DNA from: a bacterium | GTDB lineage: Bacteria; Patescibacteriota; Minisyncoccia; UBA6257 | DNA length: 58,958 nt | Assembly: GCA_039793615.1 (NCBI GenBank) | Contig: JBAMLJ010000028.1 | Location: 1-58,958 of the forward strand | Reading direction: 5' to 3' | In this document: piece by piece, positions 5,470 through 56,997 of the stretch | Position numbering within the stretch: position 1 is the stretch's first letter | Layout: every line of letters starts with the position of its first letter | Made by a program: the position numbers and the translations under genes | Notes under the pieces: model-generated | Told to the model about the DNA's origin: nothing | The model's input: only the letters and a program-made list of their open reading frames with translations | Databases searched by the model: none

Positions 5470-7575
5470 TCAAATCTTGAAAGTTTTTCTTTCTTTAAAT
5501 TCCTCTTGTTTACCAAAATGCCATTGTTGCACCGGACGAAGATAACCAACAATTCGTGAATAAACTTCGCATGGTTGTTCAATAGTACATTTAGGACAAA
5601 TAAAATGTTCTCCGGGAATATAACCATGAACGGGACAAATAGAAAAAGTAGGAGTTAAGGTAAAGTATGGCAAGCGGAATTTTTTAAAAACTGTTTTAAT
5701 TAAATTTTTTACAGTTTTATAATCAGAAATTGATTCTCCTAAAAAAGCATGAAAAACTGTTCCGCCTGTGTATTTTGTCTGGAGAGAATCTTGTAATTGC
5801 AAAGCCTCAAATAAATCATCAGTATAATTCACTGGTAGTTGAGTAGAATTAGTATAATATGGTTCTTTCTCACCAGCAGTAATAATATCAGGATATTTCT
5901 TTTTATCCTTTAAAGCCAAACGATAAGATGTTCCTTCAGCTGGAGTAGCTTCAAGATTATATAAATTACCAGTTTCTTCTTGATACTTTACTAATCGATT
6001 TCTCATATACTCCATTACTTCTTCAGTAAATTGAATACCCTTAGGATCCCCAATATTCACTCCCATAAAGTTTAATAAAGCTTCGTTCATTCCTAAAATG
6101 CCAATGGTTGAGAAATGATTAGCCCAATAATTTCCCCTCATTTTCTTAACTCCATCAAGATAATATTTTGAATAAGGATAAAGTCCTTTTTCAGTTAAAT
6201 CTTCTAAAACCTTTCTTTTAATTTCTAAACTAGTTTTTGCTAAGTCCATTAATTTTGTCAGACGATCGAAAAATTCTTTTTTAGTTTTTGATAAGTAGCC
6301 AATGCGCGGAAGATTAATAGTTACAACCCCAATAGAACCAGTTAAAGGATTAGCGCCAAATAAACCACCACCTCTTTTATATAATTCCCTATTATCTAAT
6401 CGCAAACGACAACACATGCTGCGAGCATCCTCTGGCTTCATATCGGAATTAATAAAATTAGAGAAATAAGGAATACCGTATTTAGCGGTCATTTTCCAAA
6501 TACCATCATAAACTTCGTTATCCCAATCAAAATCTTTAGTAATATTATAAGTTGGAATAGGAAAAGTAAAAACTCTACCAGTAGCATCGCCCTCAGTATA
6601 AACTTCTGTTAAAGCCTGATTTAAAATATCCATTTCTTTTTGAAAATCACCATAGACTTCTTTTTGCGGTTCTCCTCCAATTACTACAGGAGTATTTTTA
6701 TAGTAATCAGGAACTTTTAAATCTAAGGTAATATTAGTAAATGGAGTCTGAAAACCAACCCGTGTTGGTACATTGCAATTAAACATAAATTCCTGCAAAG
6801 CCTGTTTAACTTCTTGATAATTTAAATTATCGTATCTAATAAATGGTGCTAGTAAAGTATCGAAATTAGAAAATGCTTGAGCTCCCGCTGTTTCACCTTG
6901 TAAAGTATAAAAGTAATTAACAATTTGTCCTAAAGCAGAACGAAAATGCTTTGGTGGTTTAGATTGAATTTTTCCAAAAACTCCACCAAATCCTTTTTGT
7001 AGTAAATCAAATAAATCCCAACCACAGCAATAAGCTCCTAAAATATCTAAATCATGAAGATGCAAATCACCATCTTCATTAGCTTTTCTTATTTCGGGTG
7101 GATAAATCTTATTAAGCCAATATTTTTTGATTACATAAGAAGATACATAATGATTTAATCCCTGAAGGGAAAATGCCATATTACTATTTTCCTTAATTTC
7201 CCAATCGTTTCCGTTTAAATAATCATCTACTAAACTAATCGCCTCTTGGGTTGCTATTTGAGCTTCTCTTAATTGTCTTCTTTGCTCACGATAAAGAATA
7301 TATGCTTTGGCAGTTTCAGTAAAATTTTCTAAAATTAAAACTTCTTCTATGATATCTTGAATTTGCTCCACATGAGGCTTTTCCTCTTTTTTAAAACGAC
7401 GATTTAACAAAGTAATTACTTTTTTTGTAAGTTCCTGAGCATCTTTTTTACCTCCTTCATTAGTAGCGGTTAAAGCTTTAAAAATAGCTTCTTCAATTCT
7501 TGTTTTATCAAAAGGAACCTCTTTTCCGTCTCTCTTTATTACAGTTTTTATATAATTCAATTGTTTTACTTTCAT
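5470..7575 (-). CDS. nrdD: Anaerobic ribonucleoside-triphosphate reductase (class III) with N-terminal ATP-cone
   Basis: ATP-cone N-terminus (VIKRDGKEVPFDKTRIEEAI), a C-terminal Zn-Cys cluster CPVHG...CPKC, and the glycyl-radical motif SRIVGYLRP. Confidence 0.92.
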   Translation of the reverse strand: MKVKQLNYIKTVIKRDGKEVPFDKTRIEEAIFKALTATNEGGKKDAQELTKKVITLLNRRFKKEEKPHVEQIQDIIEEVLILENFTETAKAYILYREQRRQLREAQIATQEAISLVDDYLNGNDWEIKENSNMAFSLQGLNHYVSSYVIKKYWLNKIYPPEIRKANEDGDLHLHDLDILGAYCCGWDLFDLLQKGFGGVFGKIQSKPPKHFRSALGQIVNYFYTLQGETAGAQAFSNFDTLLAPFIRYDNLNYQEVKQALQEFMFNCNVPTRVGFQTPFTNITLDLKVPDYYKNTPVVIGGEPQKEVYGDFQKEMDILNQALTEVYTEGDATGRVFTFPIPTYNITKDFDWDNEVYDGIWKMTAKYGIPYFSNFINSDMKPEDARSMCCRLRLDNRELYKRGGGLFGANPLTGSIGVVTINLPRIGYLSKTKKEFFDRLTKLMDLAKTSLEIKRKVLEDLTEKGLYPYSKYYLDGVKKMRGNYWANHFSTIGILGMNEALLNFMGVNIGDPKGIQFTEEVMEYMRNRLVKYQEETGNLYNLEATPAEGTSYRLALKDKKKYPDIITAGEKEPYYTNSTQLPVNYTDDLFEALQLQDSLQTKYTGGTVFHAFLGESISDYKTVKNLIKTVFKKFRLPYFTLTPTFSICPVHGYIPGEHFICPKCTIEQPCEVYSRIVGYLRPVQQWHFGKQEEFKERKTFKI

Positions 7576-33989: not shown

Positions 33990-34445
33990 ATGGCAAAACA
34001 CGTTTTTATTCAAGAAATTGTCACTAATCGAAGGGCATTTTATGATTACGAAATTTTAGATAAATTTGAAGCAGGAATTAAGCTTTCGGGAAATGAAGTA
34101 AAAGCAGTAAAAAACGGTTGGGTAAATCTTACGGGAAGTTATGTAGTAATTAGAAATAATGAAGCTTTTATTATTAATTTAAATATTTCGCCTTATCAAC
34201 CTAATAATTTATCATCAAAAATTGAACCACTAAGAACAAGAAAATTATTACTCCAAAAAAGAGAGATACTTAATCTAAATCAAAAAACTAAAAAAGAAAA
34301 ATTGACTTTAATACCCTTAAAGGTATATAATAAAAATGGTTTAATCAAGCTAGAAATAGCTTTAGTAAAAAATAAAAAGAAATACAATAAAAAAGAAATA
34401 ATTAAAAAAAGAGAGGAAGAAAGAAGAATAAAGCAAGTATATTAA
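33990..34445 (+). CDS. smpB: SsrA-binding protein SmpB
   Basis: NRRAFYDYEILDKFEAGIKLSGNEVK and a basic C-terminal tail. It lies immediately upstream of the tmRNA. Confidence 0.93.
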   Translation: MAKHVFIQEIVTNRRAFYDYEILDKFEAGIKLSGNEVKAVKNGWVNLTGSYVVIRNNEAFIINLNISPYQPNNLSSKIEPLRTRKLLLQKREILNLNQKTKKEKLTLIPLKVYNKNGLIKLEIALVKNKKKYNKKEIIKKREEERRIKQVY

Positions 34446-34468: not shown

Positions 34469-34838
34469 GGGGATGTTCGGATTCGCTAGAAAGGAATTTC
34501 TTAATACGCGAACTGAGGAACTTCGTTAGCTCATTAAAATCGAAGGGCACAAAAAATGCCAATCAAATTCCTGCCTATGCCTATGCTTAATAGCTTAGGA
34601 TAGGTTTCTCCTTCTTTAAGGAGCCCTCTTTAATTAATTCTCGGTAAATTAAAGGGGGAAGAATATCGAGATAGATTTAAATTAACTTATCCGATTAATT
34701 TAAATCGAAATTCATTCGGATAGTTTTAAGAAAACGTTTTGTTCAGTTTCGTTTCTTAAAACTATAAAAACTGAACTACGTTCGTAGAAGTATTAAGAAT
34801 GCACTTTCTAGACGCGAGTTCAACTCTCGCCATCTCCA
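34469..34838 (+). ncRNA. ssrA: tmRNA (SsrA), tag ORF ANQIPAYAYA*
   Basis: The 5' end GGGGAUGUUCGGAUUCG pairs with the 3' end CAUCUCCA. T-arm is GCGAG-UUCAACU-CUCGC. The resume region AAAAAAU|GCC AAU CAA AUU CCU GCC UAU GCC UAU GCU UAA UAG spans 34558-34590. CCA is not encoded. Confidence 0.9.
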
Positions 34839-34885
34839 CTCTCGAGCCATAACAAACAGTAATAAATTGTTAATCTTTAAACATT

Positions 34886-40950: not shown

Positions 40951-41022
40951 TATCCCCAACAAGACTCGAACTTGTATCTCAAGCTCCGGAAGCTTGCGTT
41001 TTATCCGTTAAACTATGGGGAC
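40951..41022 (-). tRNA. tRNA-Arg (anticodon CCG)
   Basis: Hand-folded cloverleaf. Acceptor is GUCCCCA/UGGGGAU plus discriminator A. D arm is GUUU-AACGGAUA-AAAC. Anticodon arm is CAAGC-UUCCGGA-GCUUG. T arm is ACAAG-UUCGAGU-CUUGU. CCA is not encoded. Confidence 0.85.
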
Positions 41023-51241: not shown

Positions 51242-54142
51242 ATGGATGATATTTTAAAGAAACAACAAGATAAAATCAAGCGTCTTTGGCAAGATTCAAA
51301 AGAAAGATTAACAAACGAATTAGCGATAAAAAAGAATCTTTTGTATGCTAATTTAAAATTAGTGAATATTAGCCCAAGTGCTGTTGAAGTTATTCCCGAA
51401 GAAGAAGCAAAACAAGCACGAGCAGTTGTTTTTGAAAAAGTAAGCAATAATTTAAGATTGGGTGTCGTTGATCCTGATAATCTAGAAACAATAAAACTAA
51501 TCGAGAAATTAAAAGCACAAAACTATCGCGTTGTTATTTATGTTATTACCGAAGAAAGCCTAAAACATGCTTTATCTTATTATCAATTCGTTAAAAAAAG
51601 AGCTAACGAAATTAGTAATTTTATTGATGTTAGTTCGATTAAAGAAATCGAATTTTCTAATTTAAATCAAGAGCTATTAAATTACCCTTCAACTGAAGTT
51701 ACCAGTATCATTGGTTTAATTTTAAAAACGGCTATTTTAATTGACGCCTCTGATATTCATATTGAACCACAAAGCAAGACAGCTTTAATTCGTTTTCGTG
51801 TTGGTGGGATTTTATACGAAGTAGCAGAAATTGATAAAGATAAATATCAAAAACTTTTATCGCGTTTTAAAATTTTAAGTGGAATCAAATTAAATATCAC
51901 TCTTTCTCCACAAAATGGACGTTTTACTATTAAAAATCATAATGATTTCTTTGATGTTCGTGTTTCCACTTTACCGGGCCCAGAAGGAGAATTTATTGTT
52001 TGCCGTATTTTAAATCCCAAAAGAGCTACTTTTGGATTAAAAGATTTAGGATTGAGAGAAAAAGATGAAAAACTTTTGAAAGAAGTAATGTCTTTACCTA
52101 ATGGAATGATAATTTTAACTGGTCCAACTGGTTCTGGTAAAACTACTACCCTATACGCTCTATTAAAAGAAAAAATTTCGCCGGGAATAAAAATTATAAC
52201 CATTGAAGATCCCATTGAATATCATATAAATGGCGTGAATCAAACACAAGTTTCTAAAGATTATACTTTCGAAACAGGTTTAAAATCGATTTTACGTCAG
52301 GATCCTGATGTTATTATGATTGGTGAGATGCGTGATAAAGAAACGGTCAAAATTGCCCTTCAAGCAGCTTTAACCGGGCACTTAGTTTTATCAACTCTAC
52401 ACACCAACGAAACAGCCGGAGCAATTGATCGTTTAAAAGAATTGGGAGCTGATTTAAATATCATTCCAGGAGCAGTACGTTTAATTGTAGCCCAAAGATT
52501 AGTAAGAAGACTATGTCCTTATTGTAAAGCAAAATACGAATTAACGCCTGAAGAAAAGCAACAAATCATTGATGCTTTCTCTATTTTATCTCCTAAAAGC
52601 GGGGTTAAAATTCCTAATGATATCCCCCTTATTTATAAAAGCGTTGGTTGTGAAAAATGCCATTATTTGGGTTATACTTCTCAAATTGGTCTTTTTGAAA
52701 TGATGCCTATTACTCCTAAAATTACTGAAAAAATACTACATAATGCCAGTAAAGACGAAATCAGAAAAACAGCTATTGACGAAGGAATGATTCCCCTTTT
52801 TCATGATGGTTTATTAAAGGTAATGGAAGGAATTACTTCTTTAGAGGAAATAATTCGTGTTGCTGGGGATATTGAATATGTAAAAAAGAGTTATGAAGAA
52901 CTTTTTTCTCAAACTCTTTTAAGAGGCATAAAACTCCTTCCTCAAGATGAAGAAAAAATTGAAGAATATCAAAAAAATAGAAAACCCATCAATGAATTAA
53001 TTGAAAATTTACCTTTAGACAAACAAATTCATTATCTTATTAGCTGGGCTTTAAAAGCTCGTGCTACTGATATTCATTTTGAACCCGAAGAAAAACAATT
53101 AGTAGTAAGAATTCGTGTTGACGGTATTTTGTATCTCTTAACCTCTTTCGATTTAAGCGAAGCTAATCAAATTTTAAACGAGATAAAATCTCTAAGTGGG
53201 TTAAATACCGAAGAAACACAAAAGGTTCAAGAGGGCCGTTTTCGCATTATCACTAAGGATAAATCATTAGATGTTCGCGTGTCTATTTTACCAAGTGGCT
53301 ATGGGGAAAGCGCTGTTTTAAGATTATTAGGAAGCGATATTAAAGCAGTTTCTATTAATAATATCGGATTATTAGACGAACAGAAAAAAATAGTTTTAGA
53401 ATCACTAAAAGATAAAGTTGGTTTAATTCTAACTACTGGCCCAACTTCCTCTGGGAAAACCACAACTCTTTTCGCTCTTCTTAAAGAATTAAATCAACCT
53501 GGAGTAAAAATTATTACTGTAGAGGACCCAATAGAATATCGTTTAGAAGGCGTTAATCAAACTCAGGTAAACGAAGAAAAAGGTTATACTTTTGCTAATG
53601 CTTTAAGAACTCTTCTAAGACAAAATCCCAATATCTTTCTTATCGGCGAAATTAGAGATGATGAAACTGCAAAAATGGCTTGGCAAGCAGCTCTAACCGG
53701 TCATTTAGTTTTATCAACCATTCATGCTAATGATACCCTAGAGGTTTTACCTCGTCTAAAAAGTCTAGGGATCGAAGCGCCTGATATTAAAAAAGCTTTA
53801 AGATTAGTAATTGCTCAAAGATTAGTAAGAAAATTATGCCCTTATTGCAAAAAAGAAGTATTAGCACCTAAAGAATTAAAAGAGTATATTGAACACGCTT
53901 TAGACAAATATCCTTCTTATAAAGACAAATTTAAACCTCCTTATAAAATTTATCAACCCTCGGGTTGCGAACATTGTAATTTTATTGGTTATTTAGGGCA
54001 AACAGCAATTTTTGAATTATCAACTCCACAAGATTTAGAAAAAGACAAACCAGAATTCCCCCGTTTGATTGATAGTGCCATTATAAAAATGCTAGAAGGA
54101 GAAACTTCTTTCGAAGAAATAAAAAGAGTTTTAGGAATATAA
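51242..54142 (+). CDS. Tandem-duplicated type II/IV secretion (GspE/PilB-family) ATPase: N1E-like domain plus two complete N2E-ATPase-Zn modules in one ORF
   Basis: Module A has GPTGSGKTTT, ITIEDPIEY, DPDVIMIGEMRD, TGHLVLSTLHTN and CPYC...CEKC. Module B has GPTSSGKTTT, ITVEDPIEY, NPNIFLIGEIRD, TGHLVLSTIHAN and CPYC...CEHC. 966 aa, uninterrupted. Confidence 0.85.
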   Translation: MDDILKKQQDKIKRLWQDSKERLTNELAIKKNLLYANLKLVNISPSAVEVIPEEEAKQARAVVFEKVSNNLRLGVVDPDNLETIKLIEKLKAQNYRVVIYVITEESLKHALSYYQFVKKRANEISNFIDVSSIKEIEFSNLNQELLNYPSTEVTSIIGLILKTAILIDASDIHIEPQSKTALIRFRVGGILYEVAEIDKDKYQKLLSRFKILSGIKLNITLSPQNGRFTIKNHNDFFDVRVSTLPGPEGEFIVCRILNPKRATFGLKDLGLREKDEKLLKEVMSLPNGMIILTGPTGSGKTTTLYALLKEKISPGIKIITIEDPIEYHINGVNQTQVSKDYTFETGLKSILRQDPDVIMIGEMRDKETVKIALQAALTGHLVLSTLHTNETAGAIDRLKELGADLNIIPGAVRLIVAQRLVRRLCPYCKAKYELTPEEKQQIIDAFSILSPKSGVKIPNDIPLIYKSVGCEKCHYLGYTSQIGLFEMMPITPKITEKILHNASKDEIRKTAIDEGMIPLFHDGLLKVMEGITSLEEIIRVAGDIEYVKKSYEELFSQTLLRGIKLLPQDEEKIEEYQKNRKPINELIENLPLDKQIHYLISWALKARATDIHFEPEEKQLVVRIRVDGILYLLTSFDLSEANQILNEIKSLSGLNTEETQKVQEGRFRIITKDKSLDVRVSILPSGYGESAVLRLLGSDIKAVSINNIGLLDEQKKIVLESLKDKVGLILTTGPTSSGKTTTLFALLKELNQPGVKIITVEDPIEYRLEGVNQTQVNEEKGYTFANALRTLLRQNPNIFLIGEIRDDETAKMAWQAALTGHLVLSTIHANDTLEVLPRLKSLGIEAPDIKKALRLVIAQRLVRKLCPYCKKEVLAPKELKEYIEHALDKYPSYKDKFKPPYKIYQPSGCEHCNFIGYLGQTAIFELSTPQDLEKDKPEFPRLIDSAIIKMLEGETSFEEIKRVLGI

Positions 54143-54146
54143 AAAT

Positions 54147-54225
54147 AAAATTACAAACAATAAAAAGAAATATTCCATTCAGTATTCAATATGAATATGA
54201 AGGCTTAAAAATTAAAAATTAATAA
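54147..54225 (+). repeat. Composite intergenic module (AAATTACAAA - A-rich - heptamer array - AAAAATT tracts), copy f
   Basis: aaaattacaaacaataaaaagaaatattccattcagtattcaatatgaatatgaaggcttaaaaattaaaaattaataaaa. Homologous to the copies at 54496-54585 and 58877-58958. Confidence 0.7.
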
Positions 54226-54399
54226 AAAACCCATTAACCTGCAGGCAAAGTTCCCTCATCAAGAGGAATTTAGAATTCGATCAAGGTACATTTCAGTCGG
54301 AACCAAAATGCCCATTGATACAGAATTCCAACAAGCCATCCACAAATATTGTAGCTTGTTTGCCCACAGATTAATGGGTTTTTTAAAATTAAAAATACT
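54224..54399 (-). ncRNA. Unclassified structured RNA of about 175 nt (6S-like candidate, class not established)
   Basis: A perfect 14-bp closing helix 54224-54237/54371-54384, extended by 54239-41/54367-69 and 54244-49/54359-64. There are internal hairpins and an apical stem 54280-93/54306-19. Two near-consensus promoters lie upstream on the minus strand, and the 3' stem is followed by U6. The region is a GC-richer island. Confidence 0.5.
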
Positions 54400-54405
54400 A
54401 ACTAT

Positions 54406-54434
54406 ATAGTAGCACAAAAATATTCTTTTGTCAA
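54406..54434 (-). promoter_or_regulatory. Proximal sigma70 promoter (P2) for the 54224-54399 RNA
   Basis: Minus strand reads TTGACA (54434-54429), a 17-nt spacer, then TGC-TACTAT (54414-54406, extended -10). Confidence 0.5.
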
Positions 54435-54455
54435 GAAATGGTGGCAACGTTATTT

Positions 54456-54483
54456 ATTATATTCAAACTTTCCTCTTTGTCAA
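54456..54483 (-). promoter_or_regulatory. Distal consensus sigma70 promoter (P1)
   Basis: Minus strand reads TTGACA (54483-54478), a 16-nt spacer, then TATAAT (54461-54456). Both hexamers are perfect consensus. Confidence 0.5.
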
Positions 54484-54495
54484 GACAAAAAAGCA

Positions 54496-54585
54496 AAAAT
54501 TACAAATAAAAGAAAAATTACCTGGTATTCAGTATTAAGTATTAAGTATAGAGATTTAAAAATTAAAAATTAAAAATTTATTATT
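54496..54585 (+). repeat. Composite intergenic module, copy g
   Basis: aaaattacaaataaaagaaaaattacctGGTATTC AGTATTA AGTATTA AGTATAG agatttaaaaattaaaaattaaaaatt. Confidence 0.7.
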
Positions 54586-54630: not shown

Positions 54631-56997
54631 TTAATCTGCTATTTTATCCCATTCCCCTTTCTCAACTATCTCAATAAAGTTATTCACCGCTTCTTGATAC
54701 TGAGAATTTAATTCAACAACTTTTTTTGCGTATTCAATCGCTTTTTCTTTATTGTGTAATTTAGCGTAAGTAGCAGCGAGATGAATGTATACTGATGGAT
54801 TTTTAGGATCTAATTTTAATTCTTGCTCATAAAGCTTAATAATTCTTTGATAGTCTTTATGTTGTGCCAATATTTTAACTAAATTATTCATTAATTGAGA
54901 ATCATTAAAAACATAACCATTATCCAAAGCTTTGACGAAATAATCAAAACTTGAAGTGGTGTTATTTTGCATCAAATAATAATACCCCATTAAATAATTA
55001 GCAATATTATTATTAGGATCCAATTGTAAAACTTTCTCAAGCTCCAATTTTGCTTTTTCTGATTCATTTAAAAGAAAATCTAATTTGGCTGAAATTAAAT
55101 AAGTTTGCGGAAAATAAGGAGCAATTTTAATTAAATCATCCCTGATTTGTTTTGCTTCCTCTAATTTTTCTTTATTCCACCGAGACTCATAAATGATTAA
55201 TTGTAATTTATTAAATACTAAACGATAATTCCATGGTTCTTTCTTTAATAAATCATCGCTTAATTTGATTAATTCGTTAATTAATGGTTCGATTTTTTCA
55301 TTAATAACGCCGTAACTGCCTATAATATTATACGTACCAATTACTAAATCTTTTCTTAAATTATCCATTTTGCCAATGGAATAATTTAAACTCTTAAATT
55401 CGCTTAAAGCGTCATCATATTTTTGAGCAGCGATTAAACGAGCCAAATTAATAATTCCTTGACTAATGGAATAAGTTTTTACTACTATTTGGGATAGAGA
55501 GAAAATAATTAAACAAAAAGCACTAATTAAAATAAAACCCTTTAATAGCTGAAAAGCATAATCTTTTCTTTTTAAAGCGACTGAAGAAAAACCATATTCT
55601 TTTAAAATCATATCTTCTGATCGGCTTAAAACTGGAATAAATCCTAATACCAAAAAGAACATCAAATAACTTTCATGAAAATCAAAAAGAAAAATATTTT
55701 GAACAAAATAACTAATAATTAACGACTCGAAAACAACGCTTTGAATAAAACCTCCCTCTTGTTGGCGTTTTCTTTGAAGTAAAATAAAAGTAACGATAAA
55801 AATTCCTAAATAAGAAATAAATCCAACCAAACCAGTAGTAGCTAAAACTTCCATTATTTTATTATGAGCACGATCAAAATAAAAATCTTCAGGTAAAACT
55901 TTTACTACCTCAGGATTAAAATTCTTTAAATAGGCAGGCTCATAATTTTCGATCCCCCATCCAAAAATTGGTTTTTCCAGAAAACTTTTAAAGGCAGTTT
56001 CTGCTGATAAAAGACGTGACATTCCAGTAGGATCTTTATAAGAAATTGAGGTTAAGCGCATTAGGGCAAAATTATTTTTAACAAAATTAGTATTCTTCAA
56101 ACTAAAAACTGTGATCAAAAAAATAGTAATTATTACCAAAACAATTAATGATAATTTTTTAAAAACTAAAAACTCTTTGCGGGAAGAAATTAATAAATTA
56201 ACAATTAAAAATAAAATACCAATTCCTAAACCAATCATCCCTCCTCTTGTTCCTGAAATAAAAACCAATAAAGCATCAAAAACAGCAATCCCTAACCACA
56301 AGAAGCTCTCTTTTTGAGGAAAGAGACTTTTTACTGTTGTTTTAAGTGAAGCCTTAACCGAATCTCTTAATCCAAAATGTTTTGCAGTTTTAATGGCATT
56401 AGAATTCTTGGCAATGATATTTATTTGCTCCAGCAATAAGCTGTCAAAATAAAAGTATAAAGCTAAAAAACAATTAAATATAAAATAAGTAGCCAAATAA
56501 GAAGGATTACCGGTAAAACCAGATAAACGTGGCGTTGGCTGCACTGATCCAATTGCCATCCCCTTATAAATTAATAATGATAAAATACCATAAAAAGTAC
56601 TAATAAAAATTTCAATTTTAAATAATTGTTTAAACTCATTAAAATCAAAAACATTAGTAATGATGATAAAGAAGATAATGAAATGCCAGACACCAATTAC
56701 TCCCTCCATTCTTTCACAACCAGATAACAAACTCCAAATTAAATTAACTCCAAAAAATGCTGATAGAAAAACAGCAATCCCATAAATTAATAAAAAAACC
56801 GTTAAGGCATTAACTTTAAATTTTGCTTCCCCTCTCGTAATCATTAACAAATACACCAAAAGCATTGCTTCTACAATTATCCGAAAAACAGTTGCTTTAG
56901 CAACAATAAAAGGAAAATAAGTGCGAGAAGAAACCAAAAAAGGCGTCAATAAAGTCGCGATTGTAAGGTAAAAAAGTATAGATTTTAAGTTTGACAT
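54631..56997 (-). CDS. O-antigen ligase (Wzy_C)-like polytopic membrane protein fused to C-terminal TPR repeats
   Basis: About 12 TM helices with the ligase-like loop SGTRGGMIGLGIG, then a TPR-like C-terminal third (AKLELEKVLQLDPNN, YEQELKLDPKNPSVYIHLAATYAKL). Confidence 0.7.
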   Translation of the reverse strand: MSNLKSILFYLTIATLLTPFLVSSRTYFPFIVAKATVFRIIVEAMLLVYLLMITRGEAKFKVNALTVFLLIYGIAVFLSAFFGVNLIWSLLSGCERMEGVIGVWHFIIFFIIITNVFDFNEFKQLFKIEIFISTFYGILSLLIYKGMAIGSVQPTPRLSGFTGNPSYLATYFIFNCFLALYFYFDSLLLEQINIIAKNSNAIKTAKHFGLRDSVKASLKTTVKSLFPQKESFLWLGIAVFDALLVFISGTRGGMIGLGIGILFLIVNLLISSRKEFLVFKKLSLIVLVIITIFLITVFSLKNTNFVKNNFALMRLTSISYKDPTGMSRLLSAETAFKSFLEKPIFGWGIENYEPAYLKNFNPEVVKVLPEDFYFDRAHNKIMEVLATTGLVGFISYLGIFIVTFILLQRKRQQEGGFIQSVVFESLIISYFVQNIFLFDFHESYLMFFLVLGFIPVLSRSEDMILKEYGFSSVALKRKDYAFQLLKGFILISAFCLIIFSLSQIVVKTYSISQGIINLARLIAAQKYDDALSEFKSLNYSIGKMDNLRKDLVIGTYNIIGSYGVINEKIEPLINELIKLSDDLLKKEPWNYRLVFNKLQLIIYESRWNKEKLEEAKQIRDDLIKIAPYFPQTYLISAKLDFLLNESEKAKLELEKVLQLDPNNNIANYLMGYYYLMQNNTTSSFDYFVKALDNGYVFNDSQLMNNLVKILAQHKDYQRIIKLYEQELKLDPKNPSVYIHLAATYAKLHNKEKAIEYAKKVVELNSQYQEAVNNFIEIVEKGEWDKIAD

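Follow-up and report, generated by a model that had tools for sequence, protein, structure and literature searches.

What kind of gene, if any, lies in the spacer between pilB and a Wzy_C/TPR protein gene of a Minisyncoccia bacterium? CPR/Patescibacteria account for much of the diversity of bacteria, and their episymbiotic lifestyle depends on pili, but to our knowledge their non-coding RNAs are almost entirely uncharacterized. The window analyzed here is a 58,958-nt stretch of a Minisyncoccia (Patescibacteria) MAG. An initial annotation had placed in this spacer a GC-richer island encoding a minus-strand, stand-alone structured RNA, driven by two tandem promoters and resembling 6S RNA. All of the sequence features that it described were found where it had placed them. 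The GC content of the island is 0.33–0.39 versus 0.12–0.23 in the flanks, and the flanking genes are convergent. Our results support a stand-alone structured RNA of ~165–180 nt on the minus strand, with its own strong promoter(s) and a terminator-like 3′ end. The features of the locus are listed below.

51242–54142, plus strand: pilB, encoding a 966-aa tandem fusion with two T2SSE ATPase domains, convergent with the RNA gene
54221–54399, minus strand: predicted primary transcript from promoter P2 (~179 nt), with ends deduced from the promoter and the U-run
54385–54223, minus strand: conserved core (covariance-model positions 1–163; CM R1/R2, 175 bits)
54223–54249, minus strand: 3′ arm of closing helix P1, UUUGCCUGCAGGUUAAUGGGUUUUUUA, including the U6 run at 54229–54224
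54253–54267, minus strand: P4 hairpin (UCCUC UUGAU GAGGG)
54272–54329, minus strand: P3 long arm, comprising P3a (54329–54323/54278–54272), P3b, and P3c (54313–54302/54297–54285)
54332–54358, minus strand: P2 hairpin (stem CAAGCUA/UGGCUUG, 13-nt loop)
54359–54385, minus strand: 5′ arm of closing helix P1, UAAAAAACCCAUUAAUCUGUGGGCAAA
near 54399, minus strand: predicted start from proximal promoter P2
54406–54434, minus strand: proximal promoter P2 (−35 TTGACA, 54434–54429; 17-nt spacer ending TGc; −10 TACTAT, 54411–54406)
54412–54455, minus strand: mini-hairpin/terminator remnant (AAAUAACGUUGCCACC...), reduced to a weak 5-bp hairpin that overlaps the promoter P2 −35 element
near 54449, minus strand: predicted start from distal promoter P1
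54456–54483, minus strand: distal promoter P1 (−35 TTGACA, 54483–54478; 16-nt spacer; −10 TATAAT, 54461–54456; 12/12)
54631–56997, minus strand: Wzy_C/TPR protein gene, the upstream neighbor of the RNA on the same strand; not a conserved neighbor

No sigma70 match of 12/12 other than distal promoter P1 occurs on the two strands of the entire window; proximal promoter P2 scores 10/12 plus a TG extension. The word that the two promoters had been said to share, TTTGTCAAGA, is indeed repeated at 54427–54436 and 54476–54485. Most homologues carry the equivalent of promoter P2, a TTGACA-17-TATAAT promoter (11–12/12) located 8–31 nt upstream of the closing helix. The tandem arrangement reported in the initial annotation is present in the window, but only a few relatives share it. 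Distal promoter P1 is orthologous to a promoter that, in many homologues, drives its own short hairpin and U-run as a separate mini-unit. The mini-hairpin has predicted energies of −33, −19, and −12 kcal/mol in relatives L118, L090, and L085, each followed by a U-run; the window copy reaches only −5 kcal/mol, no better than shuffles. Because the mini-hairpin is decayed in the window, the distal promoter probably reads through it. Direct repeats of ~80 nt flank the promoter–RNA cassette in the window.

The minus strand from 54385 to 54223 folds with a minimum free energy of −75.4 kcal/mol (z = −9.9; none of 200 shuffles was as good), compared with −51.4 kcal/mol for the plus strand. The predicted architecture is a four-way junction in which closing helix P1 (27 bp) and hairpins P2, P3, and P4 meet, with ~9 unpaired junction nucleotides in the consensus. 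The closing helix noted initially was confirmed, and its full arms (54223–54249 and 54359–54385) measure 27 nt each and are 89% complementary as DNA; all three DNA mismatches become G·U pairs on the minus strand. The run of six U residues after the 3′ arm was likewise confirmed at 54229–54224 of that strand. P3 ends in a UCCG (UNCG-type) tetraloop.

Conservation of this fold was analyzed using 55 homologous loci from other genomes and metagenomes, of which 43 distinct sequences entered the covariation alignment. A further ~35 pattern matches from metagenomes, representing 12 distinct sequences, proved on covariance-model scoring to be unrelated coding DNA and were dropped. Family members are 156–171 nt long (median, 163). 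RNAalifold analysis of the 10 protein-anchored homologues revealed compensatory changes in 27 of 61 pairs. For the 43 distinct sequences, 95.5% of cells were paired and 33 of the 61 pairs changed on both sides, a level reached by none of 500 shuffles; slid controls were 36–54% paired. Closing helix P1 was uninterrupted and bulge-free in all 43 sequences (27 pairs, 95.7% of cells paired), with compensatory changes in 12 pairs, and P4 showed such changes in each of its five pairs. P2 was retained as a hairpin of 5–13 bp in all lineages with differing apical parts; it was elaborated to 9–13 bp in divergent members, and in the subfamily of L002 and L088 the 5′ strand forms only a 5-bp hairpin of 14–16 nt. 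In P3, G·U pairs were invariant or nearly so (columns 77–158 and 106–135 in 43/43 sequences, 105–136 in 41/43, and 99–142 in 40/43), and apical loops across the family were of the UNCG type or variable extensions. Conservation is held by the helices, namely inner P1 (CUGYRGGCAA/UUGCCYRCAG), the P2 stem, and P3c with its fixed G·U pairs. The invariance of inner P1 was partly imposed by the search pattern in the 45 metagenome members; only the 10 protein-anchored members and L174 show it independently.

The alignment contained 435 G·U cells and 32 A·C cells, which fixes the minus strand as the RNA strand. Covariance-model scores were 56–184 bits forward versus 27–49 bits in reverse. A search for homologous loci with covarying helices, proposed in the initial annotation as a check, yielded these 55 loci, which show compensatory changes and place the conservation well beyond chance; strand, helices, and promoter are conserved and covarying. 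CM R1/R2 detected no members among 78 more distant pilB loci (other Patescibacteria, Saccharibacteria, Methylococcales, and others). Two weak full-length matches, L010:2291-2457 and L016:790-938, were rejected as unrelated long hairpins.

These data bear on whether the spacer might instead hold a DNA-level element, such as a MITE or recombination site whose terminal inverted repeats measure 27 bp, or a small protein gene. A long near-perfect inverted repeat around ~110 bp, the ~80-nt direct repeats around the window cassette, and overlapping ORFs of 62 and 33 aa are features that such a reading would account for. However, the covariance-model scan found a single copy in the 59-kb window, the element occupies one syntenic position in all genomes, its mismatches are strand specific (the G·U excess given above), its internal helices covary, and its promoter is conserved. 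MITEs occur as multiple dispersed copies at variable insertion sites and have strand-neutral terminal inverted repeats; the MITE was rejected on the copy number, the constant site, and the G·U to A·C ratio. The 62-aa (minus) and 33-aa (plus) ORFs are present, but the protein-level conservation that the initial annotation had named as evidence against an RNA was not found: they are interrupted, or score at background, in distant members, and the small protein gene was rejected as well. Loop indels among members have lengths that are not multiples of three. A scan of viral contigs with the family pattern gave no matches. We regard a DNA-level element or protein gene as extremely improbable.

If the spacer encodes an RNA, does it belong to a known class? 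The window and 14 homologous loci were compared with Rfam (4,227 families) at the gathering score, and the window, L001, L002, and L082 also at E ≤ 10; no family matched, SRP and RNase P RNAs included. The matches listed at E ≤ 10 were chance matches of 17–26 bits, and the miRNA and snoRNA models among these lax matches were rejected as such. The models singled out in the initial annotation (6S, RF00013; SRP, RF00169; RNase P) were all covered, and none matched. In SRP RNAs (4.5S and large bacterial forms), domain IV (helix 8) carries a GNAR tetraloop together with symmetric and asymmetric loops that are conserved; SRP RNA (RF00169/RF01854) was rejected since, in addition to the lack of an Rfam match, the apical loops here are UNCG-type or variable extensions. 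Bacterial RNase P RNA exceeds 250 nt and was rejected for a family of only 156–171 nt with no Rfam match. Retron msr-msd RNAs have flanking inverted repeats and an adjacent reverse transcriptase gene; these were rejected because the neighbors encode PilB, Wzy_C, GFO_IDH_MocA, RecG, TsaE, and PolA, with no reverse transcriptase in the fetched loci. Our literature search on CPR/Patescibacteria 6S or structured non-coding RNAs, and on pilB-linked RNAs, found nothing relevant.

The proposed kinship to 6S RNA required closer comparison. 6S RNA is an abundant, single-copy transcript of ~160–200 nt made from a housekeeping-sigma promoter; it binds the sigma70/sigmaA RNA polymerase holoenzyme and templates pRNA. 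The molecule is rod-shaped, its central bubble is largely unstructured, with an open 5′ strand that acts as the pRNA template, and its arms are non-continuous, with interspersed loops and bulges that produce a B-form-like geometry (PMC8876501). The RNA described here has a closed junction instead of an open bubble, and its 5′-side strand forms P2 in every lineage. Apical arm P3 has loops and bulges, but closing helix P1 is uninterrupted. With a four-way junction, a 5′ hairpin, and a bulge-free closing helix, it falls outside the structural definition of 6S RNA and is probably not a 6S RNA. The resemblance drawn in the initial annotation was not supported, although size, expression signals, and the hairpin on the 3′ side are 6S-like.

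It might still be a highly divergent 6S RNA of this lineage that sequesters the sigma70 holoenzyme and is released by pRNA synthesis. In that case, the closing helix would act as a mimic of downstream promoter DNA, and P3 as one of the upstream duplex; the 5′ and 3′ bubble strands would contain P2 and P4 as hairpins that melt on RNA polymerase, and the pRNA would be templated on the invariant GGCAAGCAAGC stretch. The length of 156–171 nt, the ends paired in a long closing stem, the apical arm with internal loops, the single copy, and the strongest promoters of the window (tandem in some members) are as expected for a 6S RNA. A 3′ central-bubble hairpin of 5–7 bp is normal for Firmicutes 6S-1 (PMC8876501), the 5′ strand of the L002 and L088 subfamily forms only the 5-bp hairpin of 14–16 nt, and the 5′-arm sequence beside the junction does not vary, which would suit a pRNA template. 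Nevertheless, RF00013 and the other 6S-like models were silent even down to ~17 bits in four members (the window, L001, L002, and L082, searched at E ≤ 10), and 11 more diverse members had no 6S match at the gathering score. Only ~9 junction nucleotides are unpaired, the 5′-side P2 hairpin occurs in every lineage and grows to 9–13 bp in divergent members, and the closing helix is unbroken over 27 bp in 43/43 sequences, whereas 6S arms are bulged (PMC8876501). A divergent 6S RNA thus appears unlikely.

pilB adjoins the RNA in all 47 informative aligned loci (37 of which came from a context-free DNA pattern), over a PilB identity range of 46–100%. On the far side, a GFO_IDH_MocA gene, a RecG-side gene, or L25 elsewhere replaces the Wzy_C/TPR gene. 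The RNA is convergent with pilB in 46 loci and co-directional in L119 and L174, the two lineages in which the promoter–RNA cassette is inverted in place; because of these inversions, the cassette is considered an autonomous unit. In most homologues, the distance from the pilB stop codon to the 3′ arm is 4–30 nt, or the stop codon falls within the arm by up to 18 nt (the distance in the window is 81 nt), and most genomes have no other terminator between the stop and the helix. In several lineages, insertions of 250–440 nt part the RNA from pilB. L086, a pilB relative lacking the RNA, has an ordinary hairpin terminator in this position. Helix P1 pairs a 5′ A-run with the 3′ U-run and so has the form of a terminator for the RNA and, on the opposite strand, for pilB; this AAAAAA-helix-UUUUUU layout between convergent genes is that of a predicted bidirectional intrinsic terminator. 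Since pilB is usually convergent and within 4–30 nt, the closing helix with its flanking A and U runs probably also terminates pilB. The constant adjacency points either to termination and insulation that the two genes share or to a connection with pilus expression.

Such strict adjacency could also mean that the element acts primarily in cis on pilB rather than in trans. It would then be a bidirectional terminator combined with a strongly transcribed antisense RNA that sets the pilB mRNA level, by pairing with the pilB 3′ UTR or by colliding with pilB transcription, and the internal structure would merely stabilize the antisense RNA. Such a module would explain why pilB is the neighbor in 47/47 informative loci, at 46–100% PilB identity, while the far side changes, and why A and U runs flank the helix on both strands. 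Convergence in 46 loci, often with 4 nt to the pilB stop or an 18-nt overlap, implies that pilB transcripts cross the whole element before the terminator can form. Against this, the co-directional cassettes of L119 and L174 indicate that antisense overlap is not required, and obligatory cis-antisense control of pilB was rejected on that basis. The 250–440-nt insertions separate the two genes in several lineages, four helices with strand-specific G·U and compensatory changes exceed what an antisense RNA or terminator needs, and the L086 relative makes do with a simple hairpin. We consider a primarily cis-acting module distinctly unlikely.

Taken together, the sequence and covariation data indicate that the RNA is a new stand-alone structured sRNA family. 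We think it reasonably probable that the gene encodes an undescribed, lineage-specific, trans-acting, protein-bound structured sRNA of Minisyncoccia/Paceibacteria-type CPR bacteria. In the model that we propose, a near-consensus sigma70-type promoter would fire ~1–24 nt upstream of the 27-bp closing helix; in the window, this would be promoter P2, with read-through from perfect promoter P1, 50 nt further up. The transcript (163-nt core) folds into the four-way junction of P1, P2, P3 (with its UNCG loop and invariant G·U pairs), and P4, and the closing helix would act as the intrinsic terminator for both the RNA and convergent pilB. The consensus promoters and fully paired ends lead us to expect an abundant and stable RNA. 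Helices, rather than single-stranded seed-like loops, are conserved, and we therefore expect the RNA to work in trans while bound to protein. Against this, tests for pairing partners yielded nothing above chance: in 10 genomes, duplexes predicted between the pilB 5′ region and the RNA had z values of ~0 and no shared site, and a search of the window for P2-loop targets gave 4 matches versus 1.75 expected, none of them exact besides the locus itself. The uninterrupted 27-bp closing helix would be long enough to serve as an RNase III substrate; the outer part, which covaries, may serve for processing and termination, and the invariant inner half may remain in the mature particle.

A more specific role would tie the RNA to the CPR type IV pilus/competence machinery, either as an RNA partner of the unusual tandem-ATPase PilB or as a riboregulator acting on PilB or on pilus expression. 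It would explain the constant pilB adjacency despite changing orientation and other neighbors, although we judge it quite improbable. If true, a pilus ATPase would have a structured RNA component or regulator specific to it, the first such case. A divergent 6S RNA would extend regulation by RNA polymerase mimicry to reduced-genome symbionts and imply that a four-way junction suffices, and an RNA other than 6S would open a new ribonucleoprotein or riboregulator class to biochemistry. The locus combines the strongest promoter of the contig, textbook-quality covariation for four helices, and a fixed pilB-side position. An RNA of ~160 nt with a well-defined fold suits pull-downs and structure work, and the covariance model lets annotators mark a gene that current pipelines leave as empty spacer.

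Several known systems share features with this family. Like 6S RNAs (ssrS; RF00013, 6S-Flavo), it is a stand-alone, single-copy RNA in the ~160–200-nt range with ends paired in a long stem, an apical arm with internal loops, a small 3′-side hairpin as in B. subtilis 6S-1, and very strong, sometimes tandem, sigma70 promoters. It differs in lacking a covariance-model match, in having a closed four-way junction where 6S has an open bubble, in the stable hairpin formed by its 5′-side strand, and in a closing arm free of the bulges typical of 6S. Bidirectional Rho-independent terminators also place a helix flanked by A and U runs directly after the stop codon of a convergent gene, as L086 exemplifies. 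Their helices are 5–14 bp long, however, whereas that of the RNA is 27 bp, its “loop” is a 109-nt covarying domain of three hairpins, and it has its own consensus promoter.

Bacterial Y RNAs, including YrlA, resemble the family in that the two ends pair in a long helix, which closes off a multi-branched, cloverleaf-like module, and in that conservation is concentrated in helices, suggesting protein recognition. Unlike them, this RNA has no Rfam match and no conserved T-loop-like motif, and no Ro/Rsr or RtcB context was present among the genes called in the fetched loci. The RNase III processing stems of rRNA precursor stalks similarly consist of an unbroken duplex of >22 bp that flanks a structured RNA and covaries freely in its outer part; the stem described here differs in carrying a terminator U-run and in belonging to a small independent gene. 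Finally, as with the orphan non-coding RNAs raiA, OLE, and HEARO, the family is defined by covariation and genomic context within one lineage, but it differs from them in sequence and architecture, matches none of their models, and is a pilB-linked RNA of Patescibacteria.

The RNA candidate occurs once in the window, in the spacer between convergent genes for a tandem pilus ATPase (pilB) and a Wzy_C protein. All the sequence features that the initial annotation had placed in this spacer were found: helix arms, two promoters, a U6 run (54229-54224) ending the 3' arm of the closing helix on the minus strand, and an island of 33-39% G+C in flanking DNA of 12-23%. Each arm of the closing helix spans 27 nt; as DNA the arms are 89% complementary, and all three of their mismatches become G·U pairs if the minus strand is the RNA.

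Features of the locus in the window
51242-54142, plus strand: pilB, 966 aa, two T2SSE/PilB ATPase domains (gene calling and domain search)
54385-54359 with 54249-54223, minus strand: helix P1 (closing)
54358-54352 with 54338-54332, minus strand: helix P2, with a 13-nt loop
54329-54272, minus strand: arm P3, three helical segments interrupted by an internal loop and a bulge and capped by a UCCG tetraloop
54267-54263 with 54257-54253, minus strand: helix P4
54434..54406, minus strand: proximal promoter, TTGACA-17-TACTAT with TG extension, 10/12 (promoter scan)
54483..54456, minus strand: distal promoter, TTGACA-16-TATAAT, 12/12 (promoter scan)
54631-56997, minus strand: Wzy_C O-antigen-ligase-like protein with TPR repeats

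The PilB protein is a tandem fusion that also carries an MshEN N-terminal domain; this architecture is common to hundreds of Patescibacteria proteins of 960-1020 aa. Imperfect direct repeats (~80 nt, ~80% identical with gaps; 54147-54225 and 54496-54576) bracket the whole promoter-plus-RNA cassette, were not seen in the closest relative, L082, and may record a duplication or rearrangement at this site. Beside the RNA in the window, and also in the related locus L001, are short AT-rich repeats (attcagtatt, gattctagattc). The contig of the closest PilB relative (L081, 86% identity) stops 67 nt past pilB (6846-6912), within similar GAATCAT/GAATTAT heptamer tandem repeats; such repeats probably break assemblies at this locus.

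Homologous loci, which the initial annotation had suggested seeking, were found by two routes. The best PilB relatives all belong to Patescibacteria/Parcubacteria/Paceibacterota, and DNA downstream of relatives at 55-86% identity contained the element in all but one of the loci with enough sequence (L001, L002, L082-L085, L087, L088/L089, and L090). A degenerate pattern from ten sequences, used in one context-free scan of metagenome contigs, returned 83 stretches, 45 of which scored 51-184 bits with a covariance model (CM) built from the ten; by CM scoring, the rest were unrelated coding DNA. A further member, L174, lies outside the search pattern, beside a PilB of only 50% identity, and scored 85 bits. 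The CM detected no element near more distant pilB genes (78 loci), and a scan of viral contigs was likewise negative. Two very stable hairpins of 150-170 nt in other Patescibacteria (L010:2291-2457 and L016:790-938; perfect closing stems of ~28 bp, z = -10.2 and -6.3) matched the CM weakly on both strands and were set aside as unrelated.

The element is an RNA encoded on the minus strand. That strand folds at -75.4 kcal/mol (z = -9.9, equaled by 0/200 shuffles), versus only -51.4 kcal/mol for the plus strand. RNAalifold on the ten protein-anchored sequences gave a four-way junction of 61 pairs, 27 of them with compensatory double changes. In the full set, which took in 44 of the 45 metagenome members (56-184 bits) and comprised 43 distinct sequences, 95.5% of pair cells were canonical and both sides had changed at 33/61 pairs. 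None of 500 column shuffles matched these values, and sliding the 3' partners by 1-3 columns lowered pairing to 36-54%. The helices proposed from the single sequence covary. Strand is indicated by cell counts (435 G·U versus 32 A·C), by fixed G·U pairs (columns 77-158 and 106-135 in 43/43 sequences, 105-136 in 41/43, and 99-142 in 40/43), and by CM scores of 56-184 bits on the forward strand versus 27-49 bits on the reverse. A small-protein gene was rejected: the 62-aa minus-strand and 33-aa plus-strand ORFs, whose conservation would have argued against an RNA, are both lost in relatives, and loop indels in the family are not multiples of three.

In the window, only ~9 junction nucleotides are unpaired. 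Family members have a median length of 163 nt (156-171 nt). Conservation sits in the helices, namely the inner 10-11 bp of P1 (CUGYRGGCAA/UUGCCYRCAG), the P2 stem (CAAGC/GCUUG), and P3c, which carries fixed wobble pairs, whereas the P2 loop, P3 tip, and P4 loop vary. Because inner P1 belonged to the metagenome search pattern, only the ten protein-anchored members and L174, which also keeps it, bear independent witness to its invariance.

Nearly all members carry a TTGACA-17-TATAAT promoter (11-12/12, frequently with TG) 8-31 nt ahead of helix P1. At the 8-nt distance, the predicted start is the first base of P1, and the functional RNA would therefore be the four-helix body itself. A second, distal promoter-like site was present in 28/47 distinct upstream regions, and in many of them a conserved 18-54-nt hairpin, A(G/A)AUAA(U/C)GCUGC...GCAGC, comes directly 3' of it together with a U-run. 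This forms a mini transcription unit of its own just ahead of the RNA gene, or else an insulator; a tiny sRNA and an attenuator are also conceivable.

Mini-units (in the relatives, TTGACA-17-TATAAT, hairpin, and U-run; all minus strand)
L118:6970-7035, hairpin -33 kcal/mol
L090:7155-7200, hairpin -19 kcal/mol
L085:7375-7425, hairpin -12 kcal/mol
Window 54412-54483, hairpin decayed to -5 kcal/mol, with only the distal promoter and the 5' half of the hairpin left

The distal promoter of the window, the sole 12/12 match on both strands of its 58,958 nt, is the orthologue of the mini-unit promoter. Because its hairpin has decayed, it most likely reads through into the RNA gene. The tandem promoters initially described are thus real in the window, but they are not the ancestral design. 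Elsewhere in the contig, a sigma70-like site matching at 11/12 starts at 34302 (+), 167 nt ahead of a one-piece tmRNA (34469-34841; Rfam, 135.7 bits), and the sole tRNA is at 40951-41022 (-). On this contig, a consensus promoter seems to signal an RNA gene.

pilB was the immediate neighbor in 47/47 aligned loci with enough flank, 37 of which had been found without reference to context, across PilB C-terminal identities of 46-100%. The two genes are convergent in 46 of these loci, and the distance between the RNA 3' end and the pilB stop codon is typically 4-30 nt, or there is an 18-nt overlap; the far-side neighbor differs (Wzy_C, GFO_IDH_MocA, a RecG-side gene, or ribosomal protein L25). With an A-run and a U-run at its borders, and nothing else in the 4-nt gap to pilB, helix P1 is shaped like a bidirectional terminator that both genes would share. 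From this layout, pilB transcripts would have to cross the element before termination is possible. A purely cis-acting role at pilB is nevertheless argued against. In L119 the entire cassette, from distal promoter and mini-hairpin to proximal promoter and RNA, is inverted, and in L174 the RNA runs in the same direction as pilB. Several lineages have inserts of 250-440 nt between the pilB stop codon and the RNA 3' end; these have inverted repeats at their termini (in L085, for example, AAGGAAAAATATTTTCTC.../...GAGAAAATATTTTTCCTT) and look like small mobile elements:
L083:6917-7261
L085:6905-7152
also in L103, L118, L124, L145, and L154
Finally, in L086, whose PilB is 61% identical, the RNA is missing and a plain GC-rich hairpin terminator (AAAAAGCCCCCGAAATTTTTCGGGGGTT, 6902-6960) takes its place. 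For these reasons the cassette is an autonomous gene, yet its adjacency to pilB is conserved beyond what we can explain.

These comparisons show a predicted RNA of ~165-180 nt, apparently driven by a consensus promoter and self-terminating, with a conserved four-way-junction fold and a closing helix placed where pilB would need a terminator. Since both ends are paired, the RNA would be abundant and nuclease resistant. Several features suggest that it acts in trans as a protein-bound particle: conservation is centered on helices, some G·U pairs never change, no single-stranded seed is conserved, and no pairing with the pilB 5' region or with other parts of the window was detectable. The constant, uninterrupted 27 bp of P1 would exceed what termination or end protection needs and are of RNase III length; speculatively, P1 combines a processing stem (the freely covarying outer half) with a core helix (the invariant inner half).

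Rfam 15, including its 6S (RF00013), SRP (RF00169), RNase P, Y RNA-like, ribozyme, and orphan-motif models, gave no family match at gathering thresholds for the window element or 11 diverse members, and only chance matches of 17-26 bits for four members at E<=10. The main rival reading, that the element is a 6S RNA, is in our judgment unlikely. 6S RNA is described as a ~200-nt rod with a relatively unstructured central bubble between two non-continuous helical arms; the 5' strand of the bubble stays open as the pRNA template, and a 5-7-bp hairpin is allowed on the 3' side in Firmicutes (PMC8876501). The resemblance noted initially holds in outline, in size, end-to-end closing stem, bulged apical arm, 3'-side hairpin (P4), and strong promoters. 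However, the 5'-side strand is a hairpin (P2) in every lineage, grown to 9-13 bp in the divergent L087, L136, L140, L148, and L174, and every sequence has an unbroken closing helix of 27 bp. Because of these two differences, the element was not filed as 6S. We found neither an RNA of this kind nor any 6S-like RNA of Patescibacteria described in the literature, and we rate this real, clean, and previously unannotated feature of an under-studied phylum as a candidate new RNA family. It shares its outline with end-paired housekeeping and regulatory sRNAs but differs from them in its own architecture and its strict linkage to a pilus ATPase gene.
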